The notes: a model not told the origin generated them from the letters alone. Counted from the first letter of the stretch, positions 9,060-53,282 are shown. The stretch: 64,000 nt of DNA from Elusimicrobiota bacterium (GCA_030696455.1 JAUYSH010000120.1:42317-106316); one strand, 5' to 3'. A program made the numbers and translations.

Positions 9060-11123
9060 TCAGGTCAACCCCAGTCGCAATTCATCGGCGGATTCGATCG
9101 GCAGGCCGCAGGCCCGTTCCACGCACAAGTAGGCTCGTGCGCCGGCCCCTTCAGAGAACTCCCCGACTATCGGCATCGTCGCCGTCAACGCCGCCTTGTC
9201 GGCTCGCCGATAGGCGGCGAAAACGAGTCCCGGTCGAATCCGTTCGCGCACGACTCCCAGCAATTCCTTCCCTCCCGGCAGATCCACGTCGGCGATGATC
9301 AAGGTCCGCCTCTTCCCGGCCGCTCTGTCCCAAGCGGCCAAAAGAAAAGGCATCGCGAGCGGCCGCGAAGATAAGGAAGGCCCGAAGCGTTCTAAAGTCT
9401 CGTTCGCGAAACGATTGAAATCGTCGTTGCCGGTGAGCTCCCACAGCCGCAAGCACACATCGGCCATCACCGAACTCGGAGACGGTTCTACCCCGTCGTG
9501 GTTCTCGATCGCCCGCGTAAAAAGTTCGCCGCCGTCATTTTGGCCCGTCTGAAAGAGCCCCCCGCCGTCCGCCGCGAAGCGGCGAATGGTTTCCATCGCG
9601 AGGTCGTTCGCCCAAGCGATATGCTCGGGTTTCAAGGAGGCCTCATACAGCCCCAGCATCCCATACGCCATGTTCGCGTAATCATCCGCCATGCCGTTGA
9701 TCGCCTTTTCCCCGTCGCGCCATCGTCGCCGCAAGGCCTTTCCGTCAGGCGACGATAATTCGCGCCTGACGAAGTCCGCCGCTCCTTCCGCGAGTCCCAG
9801 ATATTTCCCGTTGCCGGTCGCGCCGTAAGCGCGCGAAAGCCCCGCGATCGCGAGCCCGTTCCACGAAGCCAATATCTTGTCGTCCAGCGCGGGCCTCGGC
9901 CGCTTCGCTCGTTCCTCGAACAGCGCGCCCCGCGCCTTCTCCGCGTCCCCCTCCGCCATCGCCCCCGGGTCCATGTCGTACAGCACGCACTTCCCGGCGA
10001 ACTCCCCCTGCGGGTCGGCCAGCGCGTTCGTCCCCTCGACCACGCCGTACCTCGCGCAGAACTCCGGAGCAGCGTTCCCTAAGACGGCCTCCACCTCGGA
10101 TCTCCGCCACAGGTAGAACGCCCCCTCCGCCTTATTCCCGTGGGGCTCATCATGCGGCAGGCTGTCGGCATCCTCAGCCGAATAGAACCCCCCGTCCGGC
10201 GCCCGCAGGTCCCGCTCGAGATACGCGATCGTCCGTTCGAGCGCTCGTAAAAGCTCGCCGTCATTCGTGACGATCACCGCATCCGCCAGATTTTCCACCA
10301 GCTGCGCGTTGTCGTACAACATCTTCTCGAAGTGCGGCACCCGCCACGCGTGATCCGTCGAGTACCGCGCGAACCCGCCCCCGAGCTGGTCGAAGAGCCC
10401 CCCCCGCGTCATCGACCGCAGCGTTTCCACCGCCATGCCCCGCGCGTCGGCGTTCCCGGTCCGCGCGTGCCTGCGCAGCAGGAAGCGGATGTTCGCCGGC
10501 ATCGGGAACTTGGGCGCCTCGCCGAAGCCGCCGTGCTCCGCGTCGAACGCCGCCCTCAGGGCGCGCTCCCCCGCCTCGAGCGCCGCTTCCTCGGGACGGC
10601 CGCGCGCCTCGGCGGAGGCGGAGGCGTAGGCCGTCACGGCGCGCGCCAGCCCCTGGGCGTCGTTCTCGATGTCGGCGCGCCGGTCCTTCCAGAGAAGGGC
10701 CAGGCGCTCCAACAGGCTCGTCCACGAGGGACGCCCGTAGCGCGAGTCCGGCGGGAAGTAGGTCCCCCCGTAGAACGGCTTGAGGTCCGGCGTCAGAAAG
10801 ACGTTCAGCGGCCAGCCCCCTTGACCGGACATCGCCTGCACGGCGGTCATGTACACCTTGTCGACGTCGGGGCGCTCCTCGCGGTCGAGCTTGACGCAGA
10901 CGAAGGCGCGGTTCATGACCTCGGCGACGGCGGGGACCGAGAAGCTCTCGTGCTCCATGACATGGCACCAATGACAGGTCGAATAGCCGATCGAGAGCAG
11001 GATCGGCTTGTCCTCGGCCTTGGCCCGGGCGAAGGCCTCGGGCCCCCACGGGTACCAGTCGACGGGGTTGTCCTTGTGCTGGAGCAGGTACGGGCTTTTC
11101 TCGGCGGCGAGGCGGTTGGCCAT
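9060..11123 (-). CDS. yyaL: Thioredoxin-domain protein YyaL (DUF255 plus six-hairpin glycosidase-like domain)
   Basis: The ATG at 11123 ([31 protein letters not shown]...) and the [20 protein letters not shown] active-site motif. The longer track ORF is an upstream wrong-frame extension. Confidence 0.8.
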
Positions 11124-36449: not shown

Positions 36450-37046
36450 TTAAAGGTCCTTCGCTTCCTTCAGCTCTTCGTATCGCTTCGGATTCTTCGT
36501 CTTGAGCTGGTCGATGAGGCCCTTGCGGTGCGCCGCCCAAGCCTTGGCGTTCTCTCCGGTCTTGCGCTTGATCGAGTCGTAGGCGAGGAACTCATAGATG
36601 GACTTGCCGTCGGCCTTCTGGATGCCGCAGCCGGGCTTGTTCATCATGCGCTTGACGTAGCGGCTCCAGATCTTCGTCTCGATCTGCCACACGGAGGCGT
36701 CGGTGAACAGCTCGGGCTGGGCCTTTTTGAGGGCGGCGAGCGCGGCCTCCTGCTTCTTATCGTCGATGCCGCCTTCGGGCTCGACGAAGCGGCTGTTGAG
36801 CGGCCGCGCTGCGGAATGGCACTGGGCGCAGCCGCCCTTCGTGCTGATCATCTTCTTGTACCCGGCCTGGACGTTGGCGGGGTAGGTCTTGAGCAGCGCG
36901 TCGGGGATCGTCTCCGGCCCGAAATCGTTCGGATACGGATTGGTGAGAGCCTTTTCCTTCTCCGTCATCTCGGCCGCGCGAACGGGCGACGCGAAGGCCG
37001 CGCCCAGCAGGGCGACGGCGGCAAGCAACGTCAATTTGCGGTTCAT
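36450..37046 (-). CDS. Monohaem c-type cytochrome, periplasmic
   Basis: Signal peptide and the CAQCH haem-binding motif. Confidence 0.8.
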   Translation of the reverse strand: MNRKLTLLAAVALLGAAFASPVRAAEMTEKEKALTNPYPNDFGPETIPDALLKTYPANVQAGYKKMISTKGGCAQCHSAARPLNSRFVEPEGGIDDKKQEAALAALKKAQPELFTDASVWQIETKIWSRYVKRMMNKPGCGIQKADGKSIYEFLAYDSIKRKTGENAKAWAAHRKGLIDQLKTKNPKRYEELKEAKDL

Positions 37047-37075
37047 ATTTATTCCCCCTAAGTGGTACGGCGTCG

Positions 37076-37333
37076 TTAAAACCCGCTGTCGTCCTTATCG
37101 GCGATGCTGATCAGCCAGGTCGCGAGGTCCTCGAGCTCCTTCTTGGAGATCTTACCTTTCCAACCGGGCATATAGACCATCGGCATGGGGCCTTTCGGGC
37201 TCCACTTCTGGACTTCGCCGGCCGGCACGCCCGCCTCGATCTTGTGGATGAGCTCGTCCTTCGTGTAGGTCCCCACGAGCTTGGGCAAGGTCGGCTCGGC
37301 GCCGAGGTTCATCTGGGCCAACTGCTCATCTTC
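37076..37333 (-). pseudogene. Met-ligand half of a class-I cytochrome c domain, cut off from the upstream multihaem cytochrome by an in-frame TAA
   Basis: Same frame as 37334-38461. The product reads ...PKGPMPMVYMPGWKGKISKKELEDLATWLISI and has no CxxCH of its own. The only start in the fragment is a TTG. Confidence 0.5.
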
Positions 37334-38461
37334 TTAGAGCTTCTCATCGTACTCCTTCTGGCCCTCGCCCGCCGCGTTGAAGCGGCGCCGGCCCTGCTTG
37401 GCGTCGAGGCCGTGGCAGCCTTGGCAGCCGTACTTCTCATAGACCCGCTTGCCGTTCGCCGCGCCCGTCAGCTGCGGCTCGCGCGCTTTCGCCGCCGTCA
37501 CATGGTAGCGGTACGGGATGATCTCTTCCTTGGTCAGGCCCGAGAGGTAGGTGGTGATCGCCTCGGCGCCCTCGGCGCTGAGCTCCTCGCGGAAGTCGGG
37601 CATGCCCGACGGCGGGATCGGCTCGGCGTTGTAGTGCGCGAACGGGTCGTTGGGCGTGACGGCGGCCGGATCGTTGACGAGGTGGGCGCGGATCCAGTTC
37701 TGGAGGTTCCAGTGGTTGTTATGGTGCTCGTTGGGCAATTCCTTGCCGTCGATGCGGATCTTCTTGAAGTTGTAGCCCGCGATGCGCTCGAAGGGCTTGT
37801 CGGCGATGTCGCCGAGTTCGACGGAAACGACGCCGCCCACGCCGTTGATCGCGTGGCAGCCCTGGCAGCCGTGCTTATTGAACAGCTTCTTGCCTTCGGC
37901 CGCGATCTCCGCGCCCTTGAGGGTCTCGAAGTTGTCGTGGCACTTCACGCAGGAGCCCTGGATGGTGGCGCCCTTGAGCATGGGCTTTTCCCAGTGCTTG
38001 ACCCAGCCGTGGGCGGCGTCCACCTGTGTCGCGAGCCCCTGGCCGGAGTGGCACGAGGTGCAGCCGAACTTGGAGAACGGGTGAGCCTTGATCAGCGCCG
38101 TGTCCACCTTCGGGTGGGCCTTGTACGGATGCTCGGTGAAGCTGTTCTTGAGCGTGGTGTTCGTGTACTCGTCCATGCCCACGTGACAGGTCACGCAGCG
38201 GTCGAAGCGCCCCAGATCGTTCGCGATGATCTGCTTGATCTCGAGCGGCGTGCGGCGCATCTTGCGCGCCTCGGCCTTAAGCTCCGCGGCCTTCTTCTCG
38301 TCCTTCTCGGCCGCCGCCTGCTTCTCCATCTCGTCGGCGGCCATTTGGTAGTACTGCTTCTGGTACGGCTTCCACTCCGCGTTGAAGTCCTTGGCGAAGG
38401 CCCAGACGAAGGCCGCCAGCATCAGCGCGTTGGAGGCGATAAAGGCTTTTCGGTAGCTCAT
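37334..38461 (-). CDS. Multihaem c-type cytochrome (5 CxxCH) of the Rieske/cytochrome b complex
   Basis: N-terminal TM helix. Motifs CVTCH, CTSCH, CVKCH, CQGCH, CQGCH. It ends at TAA (37334-37336) 30 residues after the last CxxCH. Confidence 0.8.
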   Translation of the reverse strand: MSYRKAFIASNALMLAAFVWAFAKDFNAEWKPYQKQYYQMAADEMEKQAAAEKDEKKAAELKAEARKMRRTPLEIKQIIANDLGRFDRCVTCHVGMDEYTNTTLKNSFTEHPYKAHPKVDTALIKAHPFSKFGCTSCHSGQGLATQVDAAHGWVKHWEKPMLKGATIQGSCVKCHDNFETLKGAEIAAEGKKLFNKHGCQGCHAINGVGGVVSVELGDIADKPFERIAGYNFKKIRIDGKELPNEHHNNHWNLQNWIRAHLVNDPAAVTPNDPFAHYNAEPIPPSGMPDFREELSAEGAEAITTYLSGLTKEEIIPYRYHVTAAKAREPQLTGAANGKRVYEKYGCQGCHGLDAKQGRRRFNAAGEGQKEYDEKL

Positions 38462-38462
38462 G

Positions 38463-40118
38463 TCAGAAGTTCATGCTGAGCGCGGGGATGGTCAGCACGT
38501 ATTTGATGTCGAAGGCGAGGCTCGCGCACATCTTAAGAAGAATGCTCATCGTGCTGGTCACCAGGACCATCGTGACGAGATACCTCGGCCAGTCCAACGT
38601 CCGGATGTGCCGCTGCGGCAGGACGAAGCCGTAATAGAAGGAGGCGCCGACCAGGAACAGCAGGAAGCCCGCCTGGGTCGCGTTCATGCGGCCCATGGCC
38701 ATCCCGACCGCGGCGAACAGCGCCAAGAGGCCCAGGAAGCCGCCCATCAGCTTCTTGCCGTCGAGCTCCTTCTGGATCAGCTTCGGCAGAAGCATCCACG
38801 CGGCGCCGACCGCGCCGAGCAGCGGGATGCCGATGAGCATGCTGTAGGCTCCCACTCCCTTCGGGCCGAACACGCTCCAGGTGGGAGGCGGCGCGGGCTT
38901 ATTGAGGAACCAGGACTCCCACGGCCAGTACCACGCGTAGTTCGGCCCGCGCAGGGCGTAGCCGATGTAGATCAGCGCGAACCACATCACGACGCCGAGC
39001 ATGAACATGGTGTTCGCGAACGGGCGCTCCTTCCAGGCGTAATAGCCGACGCCTTTCGGGTTCGTGTCGATGTAAGGAATGGCGATCAAGCCGACGACGA
39101 TCAGCCCGGGCATGACGACGCCGGCGATCCACGGGTCGAAGTACACGAGCAGTTCCTGCAGGCCGACGAAATACCAGGGGGCCTTGGAGGGGTTCGTGGT
39201 GACATTGGGGTTGGCGATCGCCTCGAGCGGGGCGTCCTGCAGGATCGACCAGATCATGATGAAGATCACGGTCGCCGCGGCGGCGATGTACTCGCGCTTG
39301 ACGAGGTGCGGCCACACGTCCACCTTCTCCTCGTTGGCGACGTAGGGCGCGGCCGAGAAGCTGTCCTTGCGGATCCTCCAAAAGTGCAGAATAAGAAGGA
39401 TGCCGACGACGAGCGGCACCGCCACGCAGTGCATGACATAGAAGCGCAGGAGCGTGTTCTCGCCGACCATGGTGCCGCCGAGCAAGGTGAAGCGGACGTC
39501 GTTGTTGATGCGCATGCCCATCAGCGAGCCCAGGGGGCCCTCGTTGCCGAGGACGGGGGTGGCGCCGGCCATGTTCGTGCCGACGGTGACGGCCCAGATA
39601 GCCAGCTGGTCCCAGGGCAGCAGGTAGCCGGTGAACGAGAGGAACAATGTCAAGGTGAGCAGAAGGACGCCGATGCCCCAGTTGAACTCGCGGGGCTTCT
39701 TGTACGCGCCGGTCAGGAACACGCGCACCATGTGCGCGATGACGGCCACGACCATCGCCTGGGCGGCCCAGCGATGGGCGTTGCGCAGGAACATGCCGAG
39801 CGTGACCGCGAACTCGAGGTCCTTGATGTCGCGATAGGCCAGTCCAATAGTGGGTCTGTAGTAAAACATCAGCGCCACGCCGGTGAGCGTCAGGATCAGG
39901 TACAGCGCGAAGGAGATGCCGCCCATGCCCCAGGTGTAGAGCCACTCGAGGGCGCGAGGGCGGACCTTGACGGGGTGAAGGTGGAGCCAGACGTTGCCGA
40001 TGATGTGGCCGGCGCGGTCGCGCGGGGTGTCCTTCCAGACGCCGCCGCGGAAGACGGACCGCCAGAGCTGGGAGTCGATGATCTCTTTCTTGATCTTCTC
40101 GAGGTCTAACGTGGGCAT
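38463..40118 (-). CDS. Cytochrome b (bc-complex b subunit, long form)
   Basis: Typical b/b6 N-terminus ([13 protein letters not shown]...[47 protein letters not shown]). 551 aa, polytopic. Confidence 0.85.
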
Positions 40119-40768: not shown

Positions 40769-41716
40769 TCAATTAGCGCGAGCTCCTGTCAAACCGCCTC
40801 GTCCGGCGCGCTCCGCGTCGGCCGCCCGTTCGAGGACCCAGGCGTCGAAGCCGTCGTGGGGCATCAAAGTCTCGCCGCTCCAGGCGTAGTCGAGCCCGGC
40901 GAGATCCTTGACGATCTTGCGCTCGATGCCGCCGCGGGCGATCAGCACCGGCAGCACGAGGGCGCGGGACTTCTCCCCCTTCGCGCCCGCGACCATGGCG
41001 CGTATCTCGGCGACGGCGGCCGCGCGGATCGCCGGCGCGGCGTCGTCGCGCAGCAGGCCGTAGCCGCAGCTGCGGAAGCTCTTCAGCGCCCCGCACAGCG
41101 AGCGCATCGAGCCTCTCCAAGACTCGAGGGCCGCCTCGTCGACGGGACCGTGCGCGACGAGGACCACCCGCTCGCGCGCCGGGTCCCGGCTCAGCGCCTT
41201 GGCGCGCGCGTTGAGGATGCGGCCGACGAGCTCGTGATCGTCGAGAGCTCGGGCCAGGGCGATGGGCCGGCGCGCCTTGACCCGCTCCGTGGAGAACTCC
41301 ATCGAATGGCCGTGGGCCGGCGCGGCGTGAGCGCCGTGCGCGGCGTGAGCGCCGTGGGCCTTGGCCATGCGCTCGAGCCCGGCCCGCAGCGCCTCGGACG
41401 GCGTGTCCGAGAGCCCGAGCGCGTAGGCCGTCTGATCGAGCACCTCGGAGCGGCTTTGCACGAACAGGGGCACGGCGACGATGCGCGCGACCTTGCGCTT
41501 CTCGAGGCGATCGACCGCGGCCTGAAGCGACTTCGGGTCGGCCATCCCGAGCGCGGTCTCGGTCGGGACCTTCGCGTTCACGCGGACGCGGAGGTCCTCG
41601 ACCTCCTTGTTCCACGAAGCGTCCCCCCCGTGCGCGAGAAGGAGTATGCCGTACGGGGCCTTCGCGCGGGCGGGCGCGGCGAGGAGCAGGAGCGACAGGA
41701 CCGCCGCGGACCTCAT
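40769..41716 (-). CDS. CbiX/SirB-type chelatase, long two-domain form
   Basis: Signal peptide, then two repeats (GILLLAHGG... and VVLVAHGP...). His-rich linker HGAHAAHGAHAAPAHGH. Confidence 0.6.
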   Translation of the reverse strand: MRSAAVLSLLLLAAPARAKAPYGILLLAHGGDASWNKEVEDLRVRVNAKVPTETALGMADPKSLQAAVDRLEKRKVARIVAVPLFVQSRSEVLDQTAYALGLSDTPSEALRAGLERMAKAHGAHAAHGAHAAPAHGHSMEFSTERVKARRPIALARALDDHELVGRILNARAKALSRDPARERVVLVAHGPVDEAALESWRGSMRSLCGALKSFRSCGYGLLRDDAAPAIRAAAVAEIRAMVAGAKGEKSRALVLPVLIARGGIERKIVKDLAGLDYAWSGETLMPHDGFDAWVLERAADAERAGRGGLTGARAN

Positions 41717-42792
41717 CCGGGATATTCCGCGTCTAAGACCCGACCATCCGTTCGGTCGGCGTGCTTGAGGCTGAGCTCAGGGCCCGACGACAGGGACCGC
41801 GCCCAGGCGGCGAACTCGGCGGCCTTGGCGTCGACGATGCGGCGCGCCGCGGCGACGGCCTCCGCACGCGAGGCCATGTTCTTGGCGACGATCGCCTCGA
41901 GGTCCTCGAGGCGGTATAAATACACGCCATCGATCGCGTGCACCGACTCCTCGATGTCGCGCGGCATCGCGATGTCGATCAGGAACAGCGAGCGTCCCCC
42001 GCGGCGGCGCACGGCCTCCGACACGATGGCGCGCGTGAGCACCGCGGCCGGCGCGCCGGTCGAGGAGATGACGACGTCGGCGCGCTCGAGCTCGGCGGGG
42101 AAGGTCTCCCACTTGACGGCCTCGCCCTGGTAGCGGGCGGCCAACTGATAGGCGCGGTCCCAGGTGCGGTTGGCGACGACGAGCTTGCTGACGCCGCGCG
42201 CGGCGAGGTGCTTGGCGGCGAGCTCGGACATCGCCCCCGCTCCCAGGATCAGCGCGCACTTCCCCTCGAGACGGCCGAAGATGGTCTCGGCCAGCTGGAC
42301 GGCGACGGAGGGGACCGACAAGGAGCCGGAGGCGAGCGCGGTCTCGGTGCGGACCTTCTTCCCGACGAACAACGCGCGCTGGAACAGCACATTGAGGCGC
42401 TTGCCGGTCATGCCCGCGGCCATCGCCTTCTCGTAGCCGGTCTTCACCTGGCCGAGGATCTCGGTCTCGCCCACGACCAGGGAGTCGAGGCCCGCGGCGA
42501 CCGCTAAGAGATGGTCGACCGCGGCGGCGTCCTCCCGGATCTCGGCCTGCGGGCCGAGGCTCGTTTCCGCCAGCTCCTCGAGGATGGCGACCAGCCCCGC
42601 CGCCGCCAGGTCCTGATCGGCTTGCCCGGCGACATATAATTCGAAGCGGTTGCAGGTGGACACCGCGACGGCCTCCGCGAAGCCGCGCGTCTTGAGCTCG
42701 AGCAGCACCCGCTCCACGGGGACGGAGGCGAGCGCCTCGCGCGCCGCGCACACGCGGTCGCGATGGCTCCAGCTCAGGCAAACGAGCTTCAC
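41713..42792 (-). CDS. hemA: Glutamyl-tRNA reductase
   Basis: GTG start (GTGA overlap). Active-site region AVSTCNRFELY, HLLAVAAGLDSLVVGETEILGQVK, and the NADPH-binding GAGAMSELAAKHL. Confidence 0.85.
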   Translation of the reverse strand: MKLVCLSWSHRDRVCAAREALASVPVERVLLELKTRGFAEAVAVSTCNRFELYVAGQADQDLAAAGLVAILEELAETSLGPQAEIREDAAAVDHLLAVAAGLDSLVVGETEILGQVKTGYEKAMAAGMTGKRLNVLFQRALFVGKKVRTETALASGSLSVPSVAVQLAETIFGRLEGKCALILGAGAMSELAAKHLAARGVSKLVVANRTWDRAYQLAARYQGEAVKWETFPAELERADVVISSTGAPAAVLTRAIVSEAVRRRGGRSLFLIDIAMPRDIEESVHAIDGVYLYRLEDLEAIVAKNMASRAEAVAAARRIVDAKAAEFAAWARSLSSGPELSLKHADRTDGRVLDAEYPG

Positions 42793-43637
42793 TTCCCCCC
42801 CAGGTAGTCGTGGCTGTCGGAGAAGACCCCGGCGCCGAAGAAGGTCAGCAGGATGCACGCGAAGCCGGCCATGGACACGTAGACGGGGGTGCGTCCGCGC
42901 CGGCCGGAGACGTAGCGCAGCCAGATGAACGCGGCGTAGAATCCGACCGTGACCAGCGACATGATCTCTTTGGCGTCCCCGGACCAGGCTCGGCCCGAGG
43001 ACTGGTACGCCCACACGGCGCCCATCACCAGGCCGAGGACGAGGATGGGAAGCGTGATGGCGATGATGCGGCTGTTGAGGGCGTCGAGCTCGTCGAGAGA
43101 GGGCAGCCGGTAGCACAGCTCGCTCGGCGTGCGCGACTTGATCTGGCGCTCCTGGATCAGCAGCGCCAGGGCCACGCCGAAGGCGTTGGTGAACGTGGCG
43201 TAGGCGGTCATCAGAATCATCGGATGAATATTGAGCCAGTAGCTGCGCAGCTTGGGCTCGAGCGGCGCGAGCTCGGGATTGGCCAGGATCACGGCGAGGC
43301 CGAGGCCGAGGGCGGCCATGGGCAGGACGAAGGCCCCGAGTATGCCCAGGTGCCGTCTGACCTCGATCGTGAAGAACGCGCCGGCCAGGGCGAAGGACAT
43401 GTAGGAAAGCGCGCCGAAGAAGTTGTTGATCGGCAGGAACCAGCGGTTCTCCGGGAAGGCCCAGAACGCGGCGAGGTGGATGCCGAAGGAGAGGAACTGC
43501 AGGACGAGGCCGCAGCCGACGAAGGTCAGCATGAGACGGCTGGCGCGCTCGTTCTTCGTCAGAAGGTAATGGAGGGCCGCGACGGAGGCGGCGGCGTAGA
43601 GAGCGAACGCGGACCACGATAGGACCATCTTGATCAT
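42789..43637 (-). CDS. Cytochrome c assembly protein (CcsA/HemX family)
   Basis: 8-TM protein with a W-rich motif GAVWAYQSSGRAWSGDAKE (WWD-like). Upstream of hemA, as in hemAX arrangements. Confidence 0.65.
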   Translation of the reverse strand: MIKMVLSWSAFALYAAASVAALHYLLTKNERASRLMLTFVGCGLVLQFLSFGIHLAAFWAFPENRWFLPINNFFGALSYMSFALAGAFFTIEVRRHLGILGAFVLPMAALGLGLAVILANPELAPLEPKLRSYWLNIHPMILMTAYATFTNAFGVALALLIQERQIKSRTPSELCYRLPSLDELDALNSRIIAITLPILVLGLVMGAVWAYQSSGRAWSGDAKEIMSLVTVGFYAAFIWLRYVSGRRGRTPVYVSMAGFACILLTFFGAGVFSDSHDYLGGK

Positions 43638-43688: not shown

Positions 43689-46600
43689 TCAGTCGCCGGA
43701 CCAGGGGTTGAAGCGGCCGCCGATGACCGGGGCCTCGTCGCACAGCTTCTTGAACAGTTCGAGCTGGGCCTTCGTGGCGCCGCGGGACTTCAGGCTCTCG
43801 AGCGTGTTGTAGTAGGCCATGTTGTACTCGGTGTGAGACCAGATCCCGCCCTTGGAGGAGGCCACTGACCTCGCGGCCGCGGAGATATCATCGTTGGTGA
43901 GCTTGGTCTTCTTGCCGCGCAGCGTGCCGGCGAGCAGGCCCAGGCCGAGGACCCCGCCCATGCCCCGGAAGAATTCCTCGATGGACGGGATCGGGCCCTG
44001 CCAGCCCTCGGGGACGGTCGGCACCGCGACGGGGGCATTGGTCGCCGCCCAGAAGATGGCTGCGTAGATCGCCGCGACGAGGGAGGCGGCGCCGAGCCAG
44101 AGCAGGAAGAGCTTGAGCGCCGATTCCTTCGGCGCGGCGGGCGGGCCGCGGCGGATCTCGCCGGTGCGCGCGTTCATCCTGAAGAGCTCGTCGCGGGAGT
44201 CCTGATAGGAGTACCATAGATCCCTTTCCCTGTCGCCGTTGGGCCGCTGGACGCGCGGCAGGAGGCTGACCCGAGTGACGCCGTCGACGCCCTTGAGCCC
44301 CGCGTCCGGCCCCAGCTTCACGCTCAGGTCGAAGTACGCGGCACCCATGCCTTCGGCGAGCCGCTCGGCCGAGACCATGCCCTTGAGCTCCGGCTCGAAG
44401 GCGTCCATCATCGTCTCGGAGACCGTCGTGCGGCGCGCGGGAACCATGTACTCGACGCCGCCGCTCTCCCCGCCCCAGCCGAAATGGAACCGCCACTCGT
44501 CGCCGACCGCGGCGCCGTTGAAGAAACGGGTCTCGTGCACGCCGGACAGGAAGGTGATCCGGTTGACCGGAACGCCGGCCGAAGCCGCCTTGGCCGTGAT
44601 CTTCTCCAACGCCAGCGCGTAAAGCTCGTTGGGCGCGACGGCATGGGTCAGGCCGGCCGCCTTCGCCGCGGCCCGCGAGGCCTTGTCGGACAGCTTATCG
44701 ACGCGAACGAAGGCGCCGGAGGCGCCGACCGTGCCCACGCTGCCGGCATCGTCGTAGAAGCGGTAGGAGAACTGGGAGCCGTTGCCGTCCAACGCGGGGC
44801 GCGCGGCGAGCGAGACGGACACGCCCGAGCCGAAGCCGGGGACCTCGTTCTTGAGGAGGAGCAGCGCGGCTTCAGGGGTGAGAGCGACGAAGGACTTGAA
44901 GCCCTCCGCCGAGATCGGATGGGACTTCCGCGTCGGGGCCGCGCCCGTAAAGACGCTCGTCTTGAAGTCCTGGCCGTTGCCGAGGAAGGTCGAGAAGTCC
45001 ACGTAGATGAGGGCGTTGGGGACGGAGAACTTGTAGTGCCACTGGGCGCCGTCTCGTATCGGCATCGAGGCGGTCGCCTCGACGAACTCCACCTGGTCGG
45101 CCGGCACGCCGCGCTTGGCCGCGGCCTCGCGGGCCTGCTTGAGCGCCGTCGCGTAAGACTCGTTCGGGTCGGAGAGGACCGACGGGCGCCAGGCGCTCAT
45201 CATCCCGGCCATGCCGAGCGCGGTCGCGCCGAGGAAGAAGCCGGCGTCTTCGCCGAAGGGCGAGAGCTGCCAGTTGCGCACGGCCTCCTCGCCCATGCGG
45301 ACGATGTCGCCGAGCGCGGAGGCGAGGGCGTACCAGCCCAGGGCGCCGAGGCCGATGATCGTGCCGATCATGCCGAGCTGGATCGCCGTGCCGACCTTGT
45401 CGCCGCCCTTGGACGCCGGAGCGGCGGGCTTGGAGGCGACGGACTCGAGTACCTTCTGCGCGACCTCCGGGCCGTGGCCCGCGAGGTTCCAGCCGTTGGG
45501 GATGCGCGGATCCATCTTGCGGCCGACGCCGATCGCGAGCGCGCCGGGCAGGCCCTTGGCCATGTTGCGATCGGTCTCGTTGCCGGTCTCGCCGATCGGC
45601 AGGCCGCTGAGCTTGAGGCCCAGGCGCGTCAGCCAGGAGTCCTTCTTCGCGGCGCGCGGCACGTACATCATGTCGCCGATGACGAGGGCCTGGGAGGCGG
45701 AGAGGCCGAGCTTCGAAGCGATCTTCGCGGTGGCCGGGGACTTCGTGATGATCGAGAACGTGGCGTAGCCGGGGTTCTTGAGGTCCTTCGGAAGGCGGCC
45801 GGAGACCTCGACCTCGATGCCGCGCTTGGCGAGTTCCTCGCCCATGATGCCGGCGACCTGCTTCATCTGCGCCGGGGTGGCGCCGACCTTGATCATCAGG
45901 GCGTAGCCGTAGGTGTTGTAGGACTCCTTGGGGTTGAGCGAGTCGCCGGGGTGCTGCTCGACGCCGGCCTCGGAGAGCCGCGCGATCGTCGCGGCGGAGG
46001 CTTCCTTGACGGCCTCGAGCTTCTCGGCCGCGAGCGCCTCGGCCTCCCAGACCTTCACGGGAGCTCCGTTTTGATATTGGTAAAGCCGGCCGCCGCTGTT
46101 GGCGGCGACGTACATGCCCTCGGTCACGTCGGCCGGCAGGCTCGCCATCGACTCGAAGACCGTGAGCTGGGTGGAGCCCGCGCGCTTCTCGTCGCCGCGG
46201 TCGCTGACGACGGCGAAGTGCTTGCCGGCCTTGCGGATGGCGCGGATGGCGTCGATCTTCTCCTGGGACAGGACTGCGTTGTAGCCGGCGAGGGTGTCGT
46301 CGAAGTCGGAGACCACGAGCTGCTTGTCGGCGGCGGAGGCGATGATCTTGGCGGAGAGGGCGGTCCCGGCCTGCGGCAGGGAGAACACGGCGCCGGTCAC
46401 GGCCGCGATGGTCTTCAGGGCGAGGCGGTGGAAGCTATAAGAGGAAGAGGACTCGACCGTCTTGGGCGCGTCGGCCTTCGGAGCCGCGGCGGGGACGACC
46501 GACGGCTTGGGCGCCTCGGGCGCGGAGGGCGCCGGCAGAGCCGGAGCCAGAGCGGACGGCGCGGCGGCGACGGCGTCTGAGAGCTCCGAGCGCCGCGAGG

Positions 46601-47027
46601 TCGCGACGCCGGTCAGGACGCTCTCGAGGTCTCGGCCCGCGGTCGCGGCGGCGGAGCCGCCGGTCTCGGACTTCGCCATCGCCTGCAGGGCGGGCGCGGC
46701 GGCAAGGATCTTCCCGGCGATCGCGGCGGTGGGAGCCGCGGGCTTGAGCGCGGCGGGCGCGGCGGCGACGGGAGCGCCGAGCCGCGGCGACGCGGACAGC
46801 AGGGAGGGCGCCGACAGAGAGGGAGCCGTCAGGGACATCGCGGGCGCGGCCAAGGACGGCGGCGGCGCGTTCAGGGAGCCGAGGCCGACCTGCGGGGCGG
46901 CGGACACGGGAGTCGCGCGGCCGATGACGGCTTGCGCGAAGGCCTGCTGCGCGTCGATCCCCACGGAGAGGACGACGAGCGCGGCGGAGAGTGCGATCGA
47001 GACGAGGCGTTTGAGGCGTCGGGCCAT
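43689..47027 (-). CDS. Large secreted/membrane protein: signal peptide, Ala/Pro-rich linker, HAD-type phosphatase, 2 TM helices, tandem PepSY-like domains, C-terminal TM and domain
   Basis: HAD motif I VVSDFDDTL, motif II VVSDR, K/GDMMY motifs. TM helices near residues 560-620. Two about 80-aa repeats (AAKRGVPADQVEFVEA...WHYKF...LIYVD and AASAGVPVNRITFLSG...WRFHF...EYMVPA). Confidence 0.55.
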   Translation of the reverse strand: MARRLKRLVSIALSAALVVLSVGIDAQQAFAQAVIGRATPVSAAPQVGLGSLNAPPPSLAAPAMSLTAPSLSAPSLLSASPRLGAPVAAAPAALKPAAPTAAIAGKILAAAPALQAMAKSETGGSAAATAGRDLESVLTGVATSRRSELSDAVAAAPSALAPALPAPSAPEAPKPSVVPAAAPKADAPKTVESSSSYSFHRLALKTIAAVTGAVFSLPQAGTALSAKIIASAADKQLVVSDFDDTLAGYNAVLSQEKIDAIRAIRKAGKHFAVVSDRGDEKRAGSTQLTVFESMASLPADVTEGMYVAANSGGRLYQYQNGAPVKVWEAEALAAEKLEAVKEASAATIARLSEAGVEQHPGDSLNPKESYNTYGYALMIKVGATPAQMKQVAGIMGEELAKRGIEVEVSGRLPKDLKNPGYATFSIITKSPATAKIASKLGLSASQALVIGDMMYVPRAAKKDSWLTRLGLKLSGLPIGETGNETDRNMAKGLPGALAIGVGRKMDPRIPNGWNLAGHGPEVAQKVLESVASKPAAPASKGGDKVGTAIQLGMIGTIIGLGALGWYALASALGDIVRMGEEAVRNWQLSPFGEDAGFFLGATALGMAGMMSAWRPSVLSDPNESYATALKQAREAAAKRGVPADQVEFVEATASMPIRDGAQWHYKFSVPNALIYVDFSTFLGNGQDFKTSVFTGAAPTRKSHPISAEGFKSFVALTPEAALLLLKNEVPGFGSGVSVSLAARPALDGNGSQFSYRFYDDAGSVGTVGASGAFVRVDKLSDKASRAAAKAAGLTHAVAPNELYALALEKITAKAASAGVPVNRITFLSGVHETRFFNGAAVGDEWRFHFGWGGESGGVEYMVPARRTTVSETMMDAFEPELKGMVSAERLAEGMGAAYFDLSVKLGPDAGLKGVDGVTRVSLLPRVQRPNGDRERDLWYSYQDSRDELFRMNARTGEIRRGPPAAPKESALKLFLLWLGAASLVAAIYAAIFWAATNAPVAVPTVPEGWQGPIPSIEEFFRGMGGVLGLGLLAGTLRGKKTKLTNDDISAAARSVASSKGGIWSHTEYNMAYYNTLESLKSRGATKAQLELFKKLCDEAPVIGGRFNPWSGD

Positions 47028-47247
47028 GCGAGGTTCTCTCCCTACTGCTGGTCTAACGTCTGCTTCTATTGTAGCCGCTCGCGCCGCCGCCGCCCTGGGC
47101 CGTACGGGGAAGCGCGCCCAGGCATTCGGTCTAGGCCTAAGGTTCTACGTGCGCGATGACAAAAGTGATAGATAGGCCTTTGGGCCCACCAGGACCTGGG
47201 CCTCATGGCCCAAGCGCGGGCCTAAGGTCCCGGCTCATAATAGGCCC

Positions 47248-48486
47248 ATGAGCCCCCTCCCCCTCGCCGCCGCCGTGATGCTCTCTCTGATCGCCTCCAA
47301 CGCCCGGGCGCAGTTCTGCCCGCTCGACGCCGGCGATACGATTCAAAAGATCGTGGCCTGCAAGCCGGAGGTGAGCACGGCCGATTGCCGCGCGCTCGCG
47401 CAAAGCGTGGGCTGCTCGGTCGTGCGCGAGCTCCCGTCCATCAACGCGATCGTCATCGAGCTCCCCGCCTTCAAGGCGGACGGCGCCCAGGCCAAGCTCC
47501 TCGCCACCACGCAGGTGGATTTGGTCGAGACCGATAAGACCGTCAACTGGCTCAAGGGCGTGACCGTCGCCCCGCCCGCCGCCGCCGCCCACTTCGAGTT
47601 CGGAGACATCGCCCGCGGCATACTCAAGGGGATCAACAGCCTCAAGCCCGTCGCCGTCGCCGACCCCGAGCAGCCCTGGGGCATCCGCCGCGTCAACGCC
47701 GAGGCGTCCTGGACCTCCCCCCGCGGCCAGGGCCAGAGCGCGGCCGTCGCGATCATCGACACCGGCATCTCGCGGTCGCACCCCGACCTGGCGGGCCTCG
47801 TCCTGGGCGGCTTCAACGCGCTCGATCCGAAGAAGCCCGACGCGTGGGACGACGACCAGGGCCACGGCTCGCACGTCGCCGGCACCGTGGCGGGCAAGCG
47901 CGACGGCAAGGGCGTCGTCGGCGTGGCCCCGATGGCCCGCCTTTACGCGGTCAAGGTCCTCGACGCGGACGGCAACGGCGGCTACTCGAGCGTCATCGCC
48001 GGCATCGAGTGGGCCGTCAAGCGCGGCATCAAGGTCGCCAACATGAGCCTCGGCGCCGACGAGGGCAGCGAGGCGCTGCGCCGCGCCGTCTCGGCCGCGA
48101 GCAAGGCGGGCCTGACCATCGTCGCCGCCTCCGGCAACGGAGGCGCCGCCGTCGGCTACCCGGCGAGCTACCCCGAGGTCCTCGCCGTCGGCGCCTCCGA
48201 CATCAAGGACGGCGTCGCCGAGTTCTCGAGCCGCGGGCCCGAGGTCGATTTCATCGCCCCCGGAGTCAACGTGAAGTCGGTCCGCATGGAAGGCGGCTGG
48301 GAGGAGCTCTCCGGCACCTCGATGGCGACCCCGCACGTCGCGGGCCTCGCGGCCCTGGCGGTCGCCCGCGGGGCGTCGTCTCCGGCGGCGGTGCGCGCGA
48401 TGCTCAAGCGCGCCGCGACGCCGCTTCCCGGCCTGAGCGCCGCCGTGCAGGGCGCGGGCATGATCGACGCCGGCAAGCTGCAGTAA
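47248..48486 (+). CDS. Subtilisin-like serine protease (S8) with an N-terminal I9 propeptide
   Basis: The Asp/His/Ser triad motifs AIIDTGI, HGSHVAGTVAG and GTSMATPHVAG. Signal peptide present. Confidence 0.9.
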   Translation: MSPLPLAAAVMLSLIASNARAQFCPLDAGDTIQKIVACKPEVSTADCRALAQSVGCSVVRELPSINAIVIELPAFKADGAQAKLLATTQVDLVETDKTVNWLKGVTVAPPAAAAHFEFGDIARGILKGINSLKPVAVADPEQPWGIRRVNAEASWTSPRGQGQSAAVAIIDTGISRSHPDLAGLVLGGFNALDPKKPDAWDDDQGHGSHVAGTVAGKRDGKGVVGVAPMARLYAVKVLDADGNGGYSSVIAGIEWAVKRGIKVANMSLGADEGSEALRRAVSAASKAGLTIVAASGNGGAAVGYPASYPEVLAVGASDIKDGVAEFSSRGPEVDFIAPGVNVKSVRMEGGWEELSGTSMATPHVAGLAALAVARGASSPAAVRAMLKRAATPLPGLSAAVQGAGMIDAGKLQ

Positions 48487-48559: not shown

Positions 48560-49660
48560 CTATTTATCGGGAGCGGTGTAGATGACCTCGGAGCCCGGCA
48601 GAAGGTCGCCCTTGCCGAAGCCCGCGGTGCGCAGGTCGTAGAAGTCGCGGTAGGCCCGGAAGCGCGTGCCGCCCGCGGCGGGCACCTCGAGGAGGATGAA
48701 GTCCCCCTCGGCGTCCTTGCGCAGGCCGAAGAAGCGGCCCGTCACCGTCTTGCCGCCATGAAGCACGACCTCGACCGGAGCGCCGTCGGGAAGCTTGTCC
48801 CGGACATCCGAGATCGAGGAGATCTTGCCCCGCGACGCGTAATGCTCGGTGCGCAGCGCGACCTTATCCACCCGGTGATACTCCCGGGAGAGGTGGACCT
48901 CTCCTTTGGGTCCCTCCAGGAGGATCTCATTGCCGTCGGCCTTCACGATCCGCCCGGAGACGGTCTGCGCCGACCACTTCAGATCGTCGAGGTCGCGCGT
49001 GTCGATGTCGACGAAGCGGCCGTGATGGCGGGCGAGGTCCCGGAACGGATCGGCCACGGGCGCGCGGCTGTGCACGACGACCTCGTCCGGACGCAGGCTG
49101 GCTCCGTCGAACAGGACGTCCACCGTGCGGCGGACCTCGGCGATGCCGCCCGCGGCCATGTCGAGGCCGACGAGCTTGTCTCCCGTCTGGAAGATCATCT
49201 TCCCGCCGGCCAGGCCCCGGAACGCGCCGTCGACTCGCTCGCCGTTGGCGAGCGTGACTGAGAGGCGCGGATCGGCGGGATTGTCGCCGAGCGCGGAGTT
49301 GAGCACGGCCTTCGTGCCCTCGTCCTTGGCGCCCGAGACGAGCCTGCTCCACTCCGCGGACGTGTAGCCGGCCCCCGCGGCGGGGAGCAGCTTCGGGTCC
49401 ACCGGGGAGATCAAAGACGGGGCCAGCACGGGGACGGGGGCTCCCGGGGCCGGCGCGGCGGCGGGCGCGGCCAGCGAAGTGCCCTGAAGCCCGGGCGCCA
49501 GCGACGGGCTCAGCGCGGGAACGGCAAGGCCCCCGGGCACCGCGCTGACCGCGGCGCCGGCGGCCGAGGAGCCCTTGGCCGCGGAGGCGGCCTCGCCGAC
49601 GACCTGCGCGGGAGCCGGGACGGCCAACAGGCACGCGAAAAGCGCCGGGAGGGGTCTCAC
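48560..49660 (-). CDS. Secreted hypothetical protein (Ala/Pro-rich N-terminus)
   Basis: Signal peptide, 366 aa. Lies downstream of copA on the same strand. Confidence 0.4.
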   Translation of the reverse strand: MRPLPALFACLLAVPAPAQVVGEAASAAKGSSAAGAAVSAVPGGLAVPALSPSLAPGLQGTSLAAPAAAPAPGAPVPVLAPSLISPVDPKLLPAAGAGYTSAEWSRLVSGAKDEGTKAVLNSALGDNPADPRLSVTLANGERVDGAFRGLAGGKMIFQTGDKLVGLDMAAGGIAEVRRTVDVLFDGASLRPDEVVVHSRAPVADPFRDLARHHGRFVDIDTRDLDDLKWSAQTVSGRIVKADGNEILLEGPKGEVHLSREYHRVDKVALRTEHYASRGKISSISDVRDKLPDGAPVEVVLHGGKTVTGRFFGLRKDAEGDFILLEVPAAGGTRFRAYRDFYDLRTAGFGKGDLLPGSEVIYTAPDK

Positions 49661-49742: not shown

Positions 49743-52112
<2,370 letters not shown>

Positions 52113-52153
52113 AGGCAATTCATTCCCGTGCGCCGGCAAGCCCAACGCTCTGT

Positions 52154-52169
52154 CGATTGTAGTCAATCG
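52154..52169. promoter_or_regulatory. Palindrome CGATTG-tagt-CAATCG in the copA / type III PKS divergent intergenic region
   Basis: A perfect 6-bp inverted repeat with a 4-nt spacer, 42 nt upstream of the copA ATG. It may be an operator. Confidence 0.3.
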
Positions 52170-52226
52170 GGGGCGCCGGACGCCAAGACCCGCGGGATCG
52201 ACGCTCGAAAAAGCTACGCTGTGGAC

Positions 52227-53282
52227 ATGCCCAATATCCTGTCGGCGGCGACGGCCGTGCCGGCGCACCGCTACGATCAGGAGGCGGTACGCCAAGCCTG
52301 CCGGACGGCGTTCGGACCGCTGCTCGAGTCTCCGGGGCGTGAAGCCATCTTCGACCACGCGGGAGTGCGCTCCCGCGCCCTCGTCGAGCCGATCGAACGC
52401 TACCTTTCTCCGCGCCCGTTCGAGGAAAAAAACGCCGCCTACTTCACGCACGCGCGCGAGCTCTCCGAGAGGGCCCTGCGCTCCGCGCTCGAAAAGTCGG
52501 GGCTTGATTTCCCCGACATCGGCCACATCATCTCGGTGACGACGACCGGGCTGCTCACGCCGAGCCTCGAGGCCCACCTGGCCCAAGCCCTCCCCTTTCC
52601 GCGCGGGGTCAAGCGGACCCCCCTCTTCGGCTCCGGCTGCGCCGGGGGCGCCGTCGCGCTCGCGCGCGCGGCCGACTTCCTGCTGGGAAGGCCCGAGGAA
52701 GCCGTCCTCGTGCTCTCCGTCGAGCTGTGCAGCCTGACCTTCATGCCGCAGGAGCAGGAGACGACGCAGATCGTGGCCGCCGCGCTGTTCGGCGACGGCG
52801 CGTCCGCGGTGGTCCTGGCCGGAGACCGCCACCGGAGCCGAAGCCGCGCTGAGATCGTCGACTCGGCCAGCGAGCTCCTTCCGGACTCGCTCGACGTCAT
52901 GGGCTGGGACTTCACCGATCAAGGCATGCGCCTGGTCCTCTCTCCGAGGGCGGTGACGCTCGTCGAGGACGGCTTCGCCGCGGCGGTGGAGCCCTTCCTC
53001 GCGCGCCATGGCCTGAAGACGGGAGACATCGAGCACTTCCTGCTCCACCCCGGGAGCGCTAAAATCCTGGACGCATGCGAGCGGTCTCTCGGGATCGATG
53101 CGCGTAAGACTTGGCTGTCGCGTGAATTCCTGGCCGCGAACGGGAACCTCTCTTCCTCGTCGCTGCTTTTCATCCTGGAGGACGCCTTCGTAAAAGCCAG
53201 GCCTCGATCAGGCTCGCATGGACTCATGGCCGCGTTCGGCCCGGGGTTTTCCTGTGAACTCCTGCTTCTCCGGTTTTCCTAG
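52227..53282 (+). CDS. Type III polyketide synthase (chalcone/stilbene synthase family)
   Basis: Active-site Cys context [13 protein letters not shown], a C-terminal AFGPGFS motif, 351 aa. It is the real C-terminal part of a long wrong-frame track ORF. Confidence 0.85.

Follow-up and report, generated by a model that had tools for sequence, protein, structure and literature searches.

A modular Elusimicrobiota protein that joins a HAD-IIB domain to membrane hairpins and PepSY-like units and is encoded divergently from a subtilase

What kind of protein carries an export signal, a phosphatase-type domain, membrane segments and a tandem repeat in a single chain, and why would it be encoded back to back with a secreted protease? 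The question is raised by a gene, here called X, in a GC-rich (68%) stretch of 64,000 nucleotides of Elusimicrobiota bacterium DNA, which we refer to as the window. X lies at positions 43689-47027 on the minus strand, as do all of its parts given below, and its open reading frame (ORF) runs from an ATG start through 1112 codons to a stop. Our tentative answer, which we hold to be possible without being probable, is that X is a Sec-exported, inner-membrane-tethered, clade-specific envelope phosphatase with PepSY-like units, partnered with the co-encoded subtilase. In this model the chain would comprise, in order, a cleavable signal peptide, a leader, a HAD-IIB domain, a membrane hairpin, two units of 175 residues, a second hairpin and a tail ending in FNPWSGD.

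X is a genuine gene, conserved under selection and confined to one clade of Elusimicrobiota. The GC content of its codon third positions (GC3) is 0.92 over the entire length, and more than 30 homologues of 1086-1120 amino acids, on separate contigs, align with it over the full length, with identities of 40-87%. Searching 5.8 billion protein clusters gave 100 relatives, all the named ones from Elusimicrobia/Elusimicrobiota metagenome-assembled genomes. A pattern scan of GTDB, with one genome per species, added 23 further loci, 20 of them titled Elusimicrobia or Elusimicrobiota and three just 'bacterium', along with one unrelated Clostridia match restricted to motif I. The original prediction, an earlier reading of this DNA, had given the size and coordinates of the ORF, and these are borne out; the ORF also has an ATG start and coding-type GC3. 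It had also called the fusion of HAD and PepSY-like domains unfamiliar; we too found no description of it, and the relatives are all named 'hypothetical protein' or, automatically, 'HAD family hydrolase' in the databases.

The predicted catalytic part of X is a HAD-IIB domain with a C2B cap (residues 191-535; 45423-46457), delimited by Pfam and NCBIfam matches, invariant residues, the AlphaFold2 (AF2) model and Foldseek. Its catalytic residues are invariant in 33 homologues: motif I is D241-F-D243-D-T245 (DFDDT), motif II S275-D-R, motif III K429 and motif IV G451-D452 with N483-E-T-D486, where K429 and D486 are assigned from where they fall in the AF2 secondary structure and from the analogy with GDxxND. 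Motif IV is split, with a conserved insertion of about 30 residues between G-D452 and N483-E-T-D486. Hydrolase_3, the only Pfam family to match X above threshold, scores 22.2 bits against a cut-off of 20.9 and aligns over profile positions 1-40 only (motifs I-II), while in the homologues P0046 and P0051 the match spans positions 1-213. The NCBIfam Cof subfamily model gives 22.7 bits, far under its cut-off of 137, and a profile of the whole protein against PDB sequences returned chance nanobody matches only and detected no HAD chain.

AF2 models the domain confidently, with a predicted local distance difference test score (pLDDT) of about 76-94 per block, and places the cap at residues 306-425, between motifs II and III. 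Foldseek against the PDB aligns this model with HAD-IIB structures at E values of 1.7e-9 to 1e-6 and 10-17% identity; the top matches (4bnd, 6rme, 1s2o, 2hf2, 1rkq and 1rlm; E 1.7e-9 to 4e-7) are all C2B-cap enzymes, and the neighbours include a phosphomannomutase (PMM)-like phosphoglucomutase, ISN1, sucrose-phosphate phosphatase and YidA/YbiV/SupH. The complete HAD core that the original prediction had read from DFDDTL, SDR, K and GDMMY is upheld by the invariant motifs, the above-threshold Pfam match and a best Foldseek E value of 1.7e-9. That every catalytic residue is invariant across all architectures of the family argues for an active enzyme, predicted to be a HAD-IIB phosphomonoesterase, and analogy with the subfamily suggests a sugar-phosphate-like substrate as the best guess.

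Within its known subfamily the domain is divergent. It shares the DxDxT, Ser, Lys and acidic motifs of HAD-IIB enzymes such as YidA/YbiV/SupH, sucrose-6-phosphate phosphatase, the eukaryote-type phosphomannomutase and the IMP nucleotidase ISN1, and, like them, carries an alpha/beta cap in the interval from motif II to motif III. It differs from them in its low identity to the solved structures, in some 45 residues of extra N-terminal structure and in the insertion within motif IV (GD ... NETD). Further, it is preceded by a signal peptide and a 160-residue Ala/Pro-rich leader, and it is fused to membrane hairpins and unrelated domains.

Two copies of a composite unit follow the first hairpin. 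Unit 1 (residues 618-792; 44652-45176), outlined by AF2 and hhalign, consists of M1, a helix with four strands, and the PepSY-like module M2 (residues 701-790; 44658-44927), defined by a module profile against the PDB and by sub-threshold matches to Pfam PepSY. Unit 2 (residues 796-966; 44130-44642), found by BLASTP and hhalign, consists of M3 and the PepSY-like M4 (approximately residues 887-966), which ends ...MNARTGEIRR. The duplication is clear, with an hhalign probability of 99.5% (E 2e-22) and a BLASTP E value of 7e-7 between the units, and hhalign probabilities of 97.8% for M1 with M3 and 98.7% for M2 with M4. AF2 models each unit at a pLDDT of about 85-95, as a helix and four strands followed by helices and four strands. 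Between the two halves of a unit, M1/M3 and M2/M4, hhalign detected no relationship, which rules out a description as four PepSY repeats.

The second half of each unit is, on borderline profile evidence, a divergent PepSY-like module. Pfam PepSY does not match X itself even at E values up to 5-10, and is reached below threshold in two of 11 homologues (best E 3e-4; in P0044, 16.9 bits against a cut-off of 24). The M2/M4 consensus matches PepSY, and no other Pfam family, with 14.0 bits against the same cut-off, the alignment taking in positions 1-56 of the 60 in the profile. A profile built from 20 diverse M2/M4 modules has as its best PDB match, over the whole module, 9vy3_A ('Propeptide, PepSY and peptidase M4'; E 0.0011, 22.4 bits). 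The two-repeat profile gave motif-level cadherin matches only among PDB sequences, the M1/M3 profile matched none of them, and Pfam found nothing in the tail, in M1/M3 or in the HAD-less relatives described below. Leader, M1/M3 and tail belong to no described family in these comparisons, with no match to a Pfam or NCBIfam family or to a solved structure.

Members of the PepSY/BLIP-like superfamily are described as periplasmic tandem alpha+beta modules that probably bind or inhibit a partner (PMC2954215), and the modules of X likewise stand in tandem behind a signal peptide. M2 and M4 resemble PepSY (PF03413) in their length of about 80 residues, in the helix and four strands modelled for each, and in the signature ...sp..Al..a....pg..v.l......g...Y.f.d..G....VnA.TGe. 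They differ in scoring 14-17 bits, under the Pfam cut-off, in receiving no support from Foldseek, and in being always paired with an unlike, unclassified M1/M3 module to make up the 175-residue unit; X's own M2 moreover lacks the NARTGE ending and has VGASGAF instead. The original prediction of two PepSY-like repeats of about 80 residues was therefore right about the duplication, but the unit is larger, and the PepSY likeness extends, weakly, to the second module only. X shares with the PepSY_TM proteins (PiuB/FoxB-type reductases) the alternation of transmembrane (TM) helices with PepSY-like extracytoplasmic modules, but the comparison with a PepSY-TM protein, also drawn earlier, does not hold: X has no Pfam PepSY_TM match and no conserved TM histidines, and its TM segments come as hairpins that can be absent.

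Among 1.84 billion representative proteins, the two-repeat profile had 89 matches at E<=1e-3. Matches in several stretches of giant proteins were rejected as relatives, those scanned being cadherin arrays that share just a D..G....vNa.TGe motif. The PepSY-like profile cross-matches P0151, P0161, P0163, P0164, P0172 and P0175, and the three of these that were scanned (P0163, P0172 and P0175) are cadherin arrays; Pfam PepSY itself also weakly matches P0172. The short motif D..G....vNa.TGev is likely to cause false positives with PepSY-type profiles.

Ahead of the HAD domain, residues 1-31 (46935-47027) make up a predicted Sec-type signal peptide, recognised by sequence inspection, hydropathy and conservation. 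It begins MARRLKR, continues with a 17-residue hydrophobic core, L8-I24, and ends in A29-F-A31 before Q32; the Kyte-Doolittle hydropathy (KD) of residues 8-26 is 2.2, and R3, R4, A31 and Q32 are conserved in at least 90% of homologues in the 33-sequence alignment. Inspection thus finds the basic n-region, the h-region and the AXA site of a Sec signal peptide, in keeping with the N-terminal signal peptide first noted in the original prediction. A Tat signal was considered and set aside: the RR pair is present, but the remainder of the S/T-RRxFLK consensus is missing and the h-region is strongly hydrophobic. As to the label 'secreted' once attached to X, the features of an export signal are there, but the protein reads as membrane-anchored.

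The long, low-complexity Ala/Pro-rich linker that had been described next to the signal peptide is a leader of residues 32-190 (46458-46934), defined by composition, by AF2 and by comparison with HAD-less relatives; residues 33-190 are indeed 30% Ala, 15% Pro and 11% Ser. Its AF2 pLDDT is below 50 save for two helices at 99-139, and this conserved two-helix patch ends in the motif G-R-D-L-E-S-V-L-T-G (residues 131-140; 46608-46637), nearly invariant in the alignment. The motif occurs in every family member of the fetched loci, including the HAD-less P0145, P0130 and L035 gene, and the HAD-less relatives carry it within an analogous Ala/Pro-rich leader. The helical C-terminal domain (residues 1042-1112; 43692-43904), defined by invariant columns and AF2, has three helices in the model and an invariant ...GG(S/R)FNPWSGD-COOH terminus; it closes the protein, as the original prediction had it, and is also found in HAD-less relatives.

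The family as a whole is modular, with zero, one, two or three repeat units and optional hairpins. HAD-only forms exist (P0080 and P0088), as do HAD-less forms (P0145, P0122, P0130, P0127 and the L035 gene) in which a signal peptide and the leader motif are followed by one or two units and, often, by the tail. HAD-less relatives are encoded at L010 (2756-4882), L035 (1-837) and L009 (5545-6891), where the leader motif reads GRxIExxLTG and the TM segments and FNPWSGD tail are variable. Those of L010 and L035 occupy the slot of X, upstream of ResB and CcsA genes, while the soluble L009 form lies elsewhere and has no subtilase nearby. The overall architecture is undescribed, as are the leader, M1/M3 and the tail, and all of them occur only in a single clade of an uncultured phylum.

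This modularity bears directly on how X sits in the membrane. The first helical hairpin (residues 545-612; TM1 545-575, TM2 595-612; 45192-45395) was located by hydropathy, and the second (residues 973-1037; TM3 973-995, TM4 1017-1037; 43917-44111) by hydropathy together with an argument from even TM numbers. TM3 is strong, whereas TM4 is weakly hydrophobic and Gly-rich and probably completes the second hairpin. An even number is required because in P0081 the HAD domain is joined straight to the tail with zero TM segments and P0042 and P0049 have exactly two. In P0011, P0017 and P0039 the first hairpin is missing as a whole unit, and P0145, also TM-less, consists of a signal peptide, the leader, a repeat unit and the tail. 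Since TM-less, two-TM and hairpin-lacking variants all exist, the HAD domain, the repeats and the tail are on the same side of the membrane, and the hairpins are optional anchors. Of the TM helices claimed previously, the two after the HAD domain and the strong one at 973-995 were correctly identified, but the weak fourth helix at 1017-1037 had been overlooked.

Which side this is depends on whether the chain crosses the membrane before the HAD domain. The segment 203-222 is the only hydrophobic stretch ahead of it, and a TM helix at this position was rejected on the strength of charged residues in homologues and of the AF2 context: D, N or R occurs within it in P0051, P0060 and P0066, and in the model it is a helix that passes into an extended stretch and adjoins the HAD domain without a break, at a pLDDT of about 88, compared with less than 50 for the true TM helices. 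A periplasmic location of the soluble domains is therefore favoured, because the signal peptide is conserved, no credible stop-transfer segment precedes the HAD domain, P0145 is soluble and the modules are PepSY-like. Taking sequence and model together, we regard this placement as likely.

The divergent neighbour of X is the most constant feature of the locus. Across a 220-bp intergenic region (47028-47247, delimited on the sequence itself), in which a simple sigma-70 scan found no promoter-like site, lies a secreted S8 subtilase gene on the plus strand (47248-48486; Pfam Peptidase_S8, 2e-55). Its product has the signal peptide MSPLPLAAAVMLSLIASNARA, followed by Q, then an N-terminal prodomain and the catalytic domain. 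The subtilase is adjacent and divergent in the window, in eight of the nine loci obtained through exact protein matches, and in 16 of the 17 loci from the genome scan that have enough upstream sequence. L006, with a HAD-only form, keeps the pairing, and so do L010, whose form is HAD-less, and L007, whose distant single-TM form has no haem genes around it; a subtilase is missing upstream in L009, which encodes the soluble HAD-less P0145, and in L022. That X is divergent from a secreted subtilisin had been seen before, but the importance of the pair was underrated.

We propose a model where all soluble modules of X reside on one side of the membrane, most likely in the periplasm, held there by the hairpins. 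There the HAD domain would cleave phosphate from a small molecule, perhaps one of sugar-phosphate type, and the PepSY-like units may be modules for binding or inhibition. X and the subtilase, whose genes have a promoter region in common, would work as partners: the protease might process the leader, or it might itself be restrained by the PepSY-like units. What the analysis shows is the make-up of the domains, their conservation and shuffling, their position on one side of the membrane and the synteny; the periplasmic side, the phosphatase activity, the class of substrate and the tie to the protease are inferred.

Several observations weigh against this model. The PepSY evidence is sub-threshold or borderline throughout, and Foldseek with the C-terminal model found nothing in the PDB at E<0.001 and no PepSY or BLIP structure in the top 50, its weak, low-probability matches being MHC-like platforms, LppX/LprG and nucleoporins; the structure prediction advised in the original prediction hence backs the HAD assignment but lends the C-terminal modules no PepSY support. 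HAD-only relatives without PepSY-like units keep the subtilase neighbour, so these units cannot explain the pairing, and since the clade is narrow, the conserved synteny may be inherited gene order and not a sign of function. Characterised HAD-IIB enzymes are mostly cytoplasmic, and the periplasm would be an unusual location for the subfamily. Finally, the distribution of charge contradicts a periplasmic placement, because it reverses the positive-inside rule: over 33 homologues, K+R amounts on average to 14.0 in the presumed-periplasmic flanks versus 1.8 in the two presumed-cytoplasmic short loops, and the TM3-TM4 loop has zero K or R in any of them. The word 'periplasmic' that had been applied to the HAD domain earlier is accordingly favoured by the signal peptide and the TM-less relatives but opposed by the charges, and stands as likely.

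The same charges argue strongly for an inverted topology, in which only the leader is exported, a passage at about 203-222 returns the chain, and the HAD domain, repeat units and tail are cytoplasmic. That would leave just the leader and the two short loops of the hairpins in the periplasm, and X would be a membrane-tethered cytoplasmic phosphatase whose leader the subtilase could clip. Beyond the family-wide positive-inside signal and the usual cytoplasmic home of HAD-IIB enzymes, this arrangement gains from the hydrophobicity of 203-222, which is about that of the putative TM4 (simple-sum dG about 6.4 each) and is exceeded by the equivalent segment of some relatives (in P0088, FALMVIAALTGAVFTLPQA, KD 1.78). 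It is countered by the polar and charged residues within that segment in three homologues and by its confident AF2 placement against the HAD domain. Moreover, P0145 has no second hydrophobic segment and yet carries a repeat unit and tail behind its signal peptide, and PepSY-type domains are described as periplasmic (PMC2954215). We consider the inverted topology, with its consequences for the leader and loops, unlikely.

A second alternative keeps both products outside the cytoplasm and removes the partnership. X and the subtilase could be co-regulated extracytoplasmic hydrolases for nutrient scavenging, a non-specific phosphatase and a protease that do not physically interact, with the position beside haem genes a by-product of inherited gene order. 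Both carry signal peptides and share the 220-bp divergent promoter region, HAD-only forms of secreted type exist (P0080 and P0088), and part of the literature describes periplasmic acid phosphatases of the HAD superfamily (class B and class C). Those known periplasmic acid phosphatases are, however, not HAD-IIB enzymes. Scavenging also offers no reason for the conservation of the leader motif or for the presence of repeat units, hairpins and an invariant tail, and it does not account for HAD-less relatives that take the same slot and, in L010, the same subtilase. It strikes us as doubtful, to much the same degree as the inverted topology.

The genes downstream of X raise a further alternative. 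A CcsA-family gene (PF01578; 42789-43637, minus strand; Pfam 2.4e-35 and an alignment with the L010 orthologue) with a degenerate WWD motif lies 51 nt downstream of X; a terminator scan found no terminator-like site between the two, which are probably co-transcribed. It is followed by hemA, encoding glutamyl-tRNA reductase (41713-42792, minus strand; 57-90% identity to genes annotated GlutR_N/Shikimate_DH in L001-L032), and then by CbiX-like, Rieske and cytochrome b genes and a cytochrome c gene with five CXXCH motifs (37334-38470, minus strand). The claim that haem and cytochrome-assembly genes adjoin X is thereby confirmed. Most loci preserve this arrangement; in L004 and L005 other genes break it up, and L007 lacks it. 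A listed 634-residue ORF (41713-43617, minus strand) is a composite, of which the 3' part (41713-42792) is hemA and the 5' part overlaps the CcsA-family gene in another frame. In L004, a HigB toxin and helix-turn-helix antitoxin pair (10136-11022) sits between X and the CcsA-like gene.

Sister lineages show a different arrangement, with a HAD-less relative (X'), then ResB, then a CcsA whose WWD motif is intact (WAYGAWGRFWGWDAKETW). L010 has S8 subtilase, X', ResB, CcsA, and L035 and L036 have X', ResB, CcsA, HemA, CbiX and onwards. The CcsA-family gene of the window has a 56%-identical orthologue in these lineages (L010, 6375-7235; L035, 2343-3206), its own WWD motif having decayed to VWAYQSSGRAWSGDAKEIM; decay is variable or intermediate in other loci that encode X with a HAD domain. 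A tblastn search with the L010 ResB found none in the 64-kb window or in any such locus (about 25 loci; L001-L033). No ResB of the complete genome CP096137.1 appears among 109 ResB homologues, in a search that was not exhaustive. In that genome the CcsA-family gene (L001, 13404-14248) seems frameshifted, with two tblastn pieces and a called protein that diverges after about residue 180, which could reflect a pseudogene or a fault in the assembly.

It is tempting to read these patterns as a sign that the X family assists System II cytochrome c biogenesis or the handling of haem, and that in the HAD clade X replaces ResB as partner of a remodelled CcsA or compensates for its loss. X heads the operon from the CcsA-like gene to the five-CXXCH cytochrome c in most loci, its HAD-less relative stands directly upstream of ResB and an intact-WWD CcsA in L010, L035 and L036, and the HAD-bearing clade combines missing ResB, in its roughly 25 loci and among the homologues compared for CP096137.1, with a WWD relaxed to varying degree. 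Like ResB/CcsB (PF05140), X holds the operon slot directly upstream of a CcsA-family gene and is a membrane protein whose TM segments are set apart by large soluble domains. Unlike it, X has no similarity in sequence or fold (no Pfam ResB match and no CcsBA among Foldseek results) and no haem-ligand histidine; no TM histidine is conserved, and the only invariant His of the family, H359, is in the HAD cap. In the sister lineages, moreover, the X relative and a genuine ResB stand side by side. The haem link is broken in L004, L005 and L007 while the subtilase pairing persists, and a PF01578 protein beside hemA recalls HemX, a regulator of glutamyl-tRNA reductase abundance; a PF01578 gene in that position can encode a HemX-type regulator and not a synthetase (PMC5801465). 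We judge the cytochrome or haem role quite improbable. More improbable still is its fullest form, with the X family as an unrecognised System II or haem-trafficking accessory, X and the WWD-decayed CcsA as a ResB-independent variant, and the subtilase as a quality-control or maturation protease.

That X is an artefact, whether a sequencing frameshift that runs two genes together or a spurious ORF of the kind that GC-rich DNA yields in numbers (several long ones overlap X on the opposite strand), is scarcely credible given its GC3, the collinear homologues and the 23 further GTDB loci, and the frameshift chimera named in the original prediction as a possible refutation is excluded because many independent assemblies preserve the reading frame.

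If the periplasmic placement is true, X would represent a HAD-IIB enzyme at work outside the cytoplasm within a large modular envelope protein, an arrangement of which we found no description, and it would point to a phosphorylated substrate in the Elusimicrobiota envelope. Three undescribed modules, the GRxLExxLTG leader, M1/M3 and the FNPWSGD tail, are shuffled among a small set of proteins. In addition, the absence of ResB from the cluster and the decay of the CcsA WWD motif coincide with the HAD-bearing form of X, which invites a comparison of how cytochrome c is matured within this uncultured phylum.

Among the other genes of the window, two past the subtilase, is one for a large P-type ATPase (49743-53048, minus strand) that is probably a copper or heavy-metal exporter, a reading based on the two HMBD stretches and the YHS domain at its N-terminus. 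ORFs of 366 residues (48560-49660) and 214 residues (36450-37094), both on the minus strand, have good GC3 and no Pfam match. A gene of about 198 residues, likewise with no Pfam match, follows the cytochrome c gene in most related loci and corresponds to the 214-residue ORF in position.

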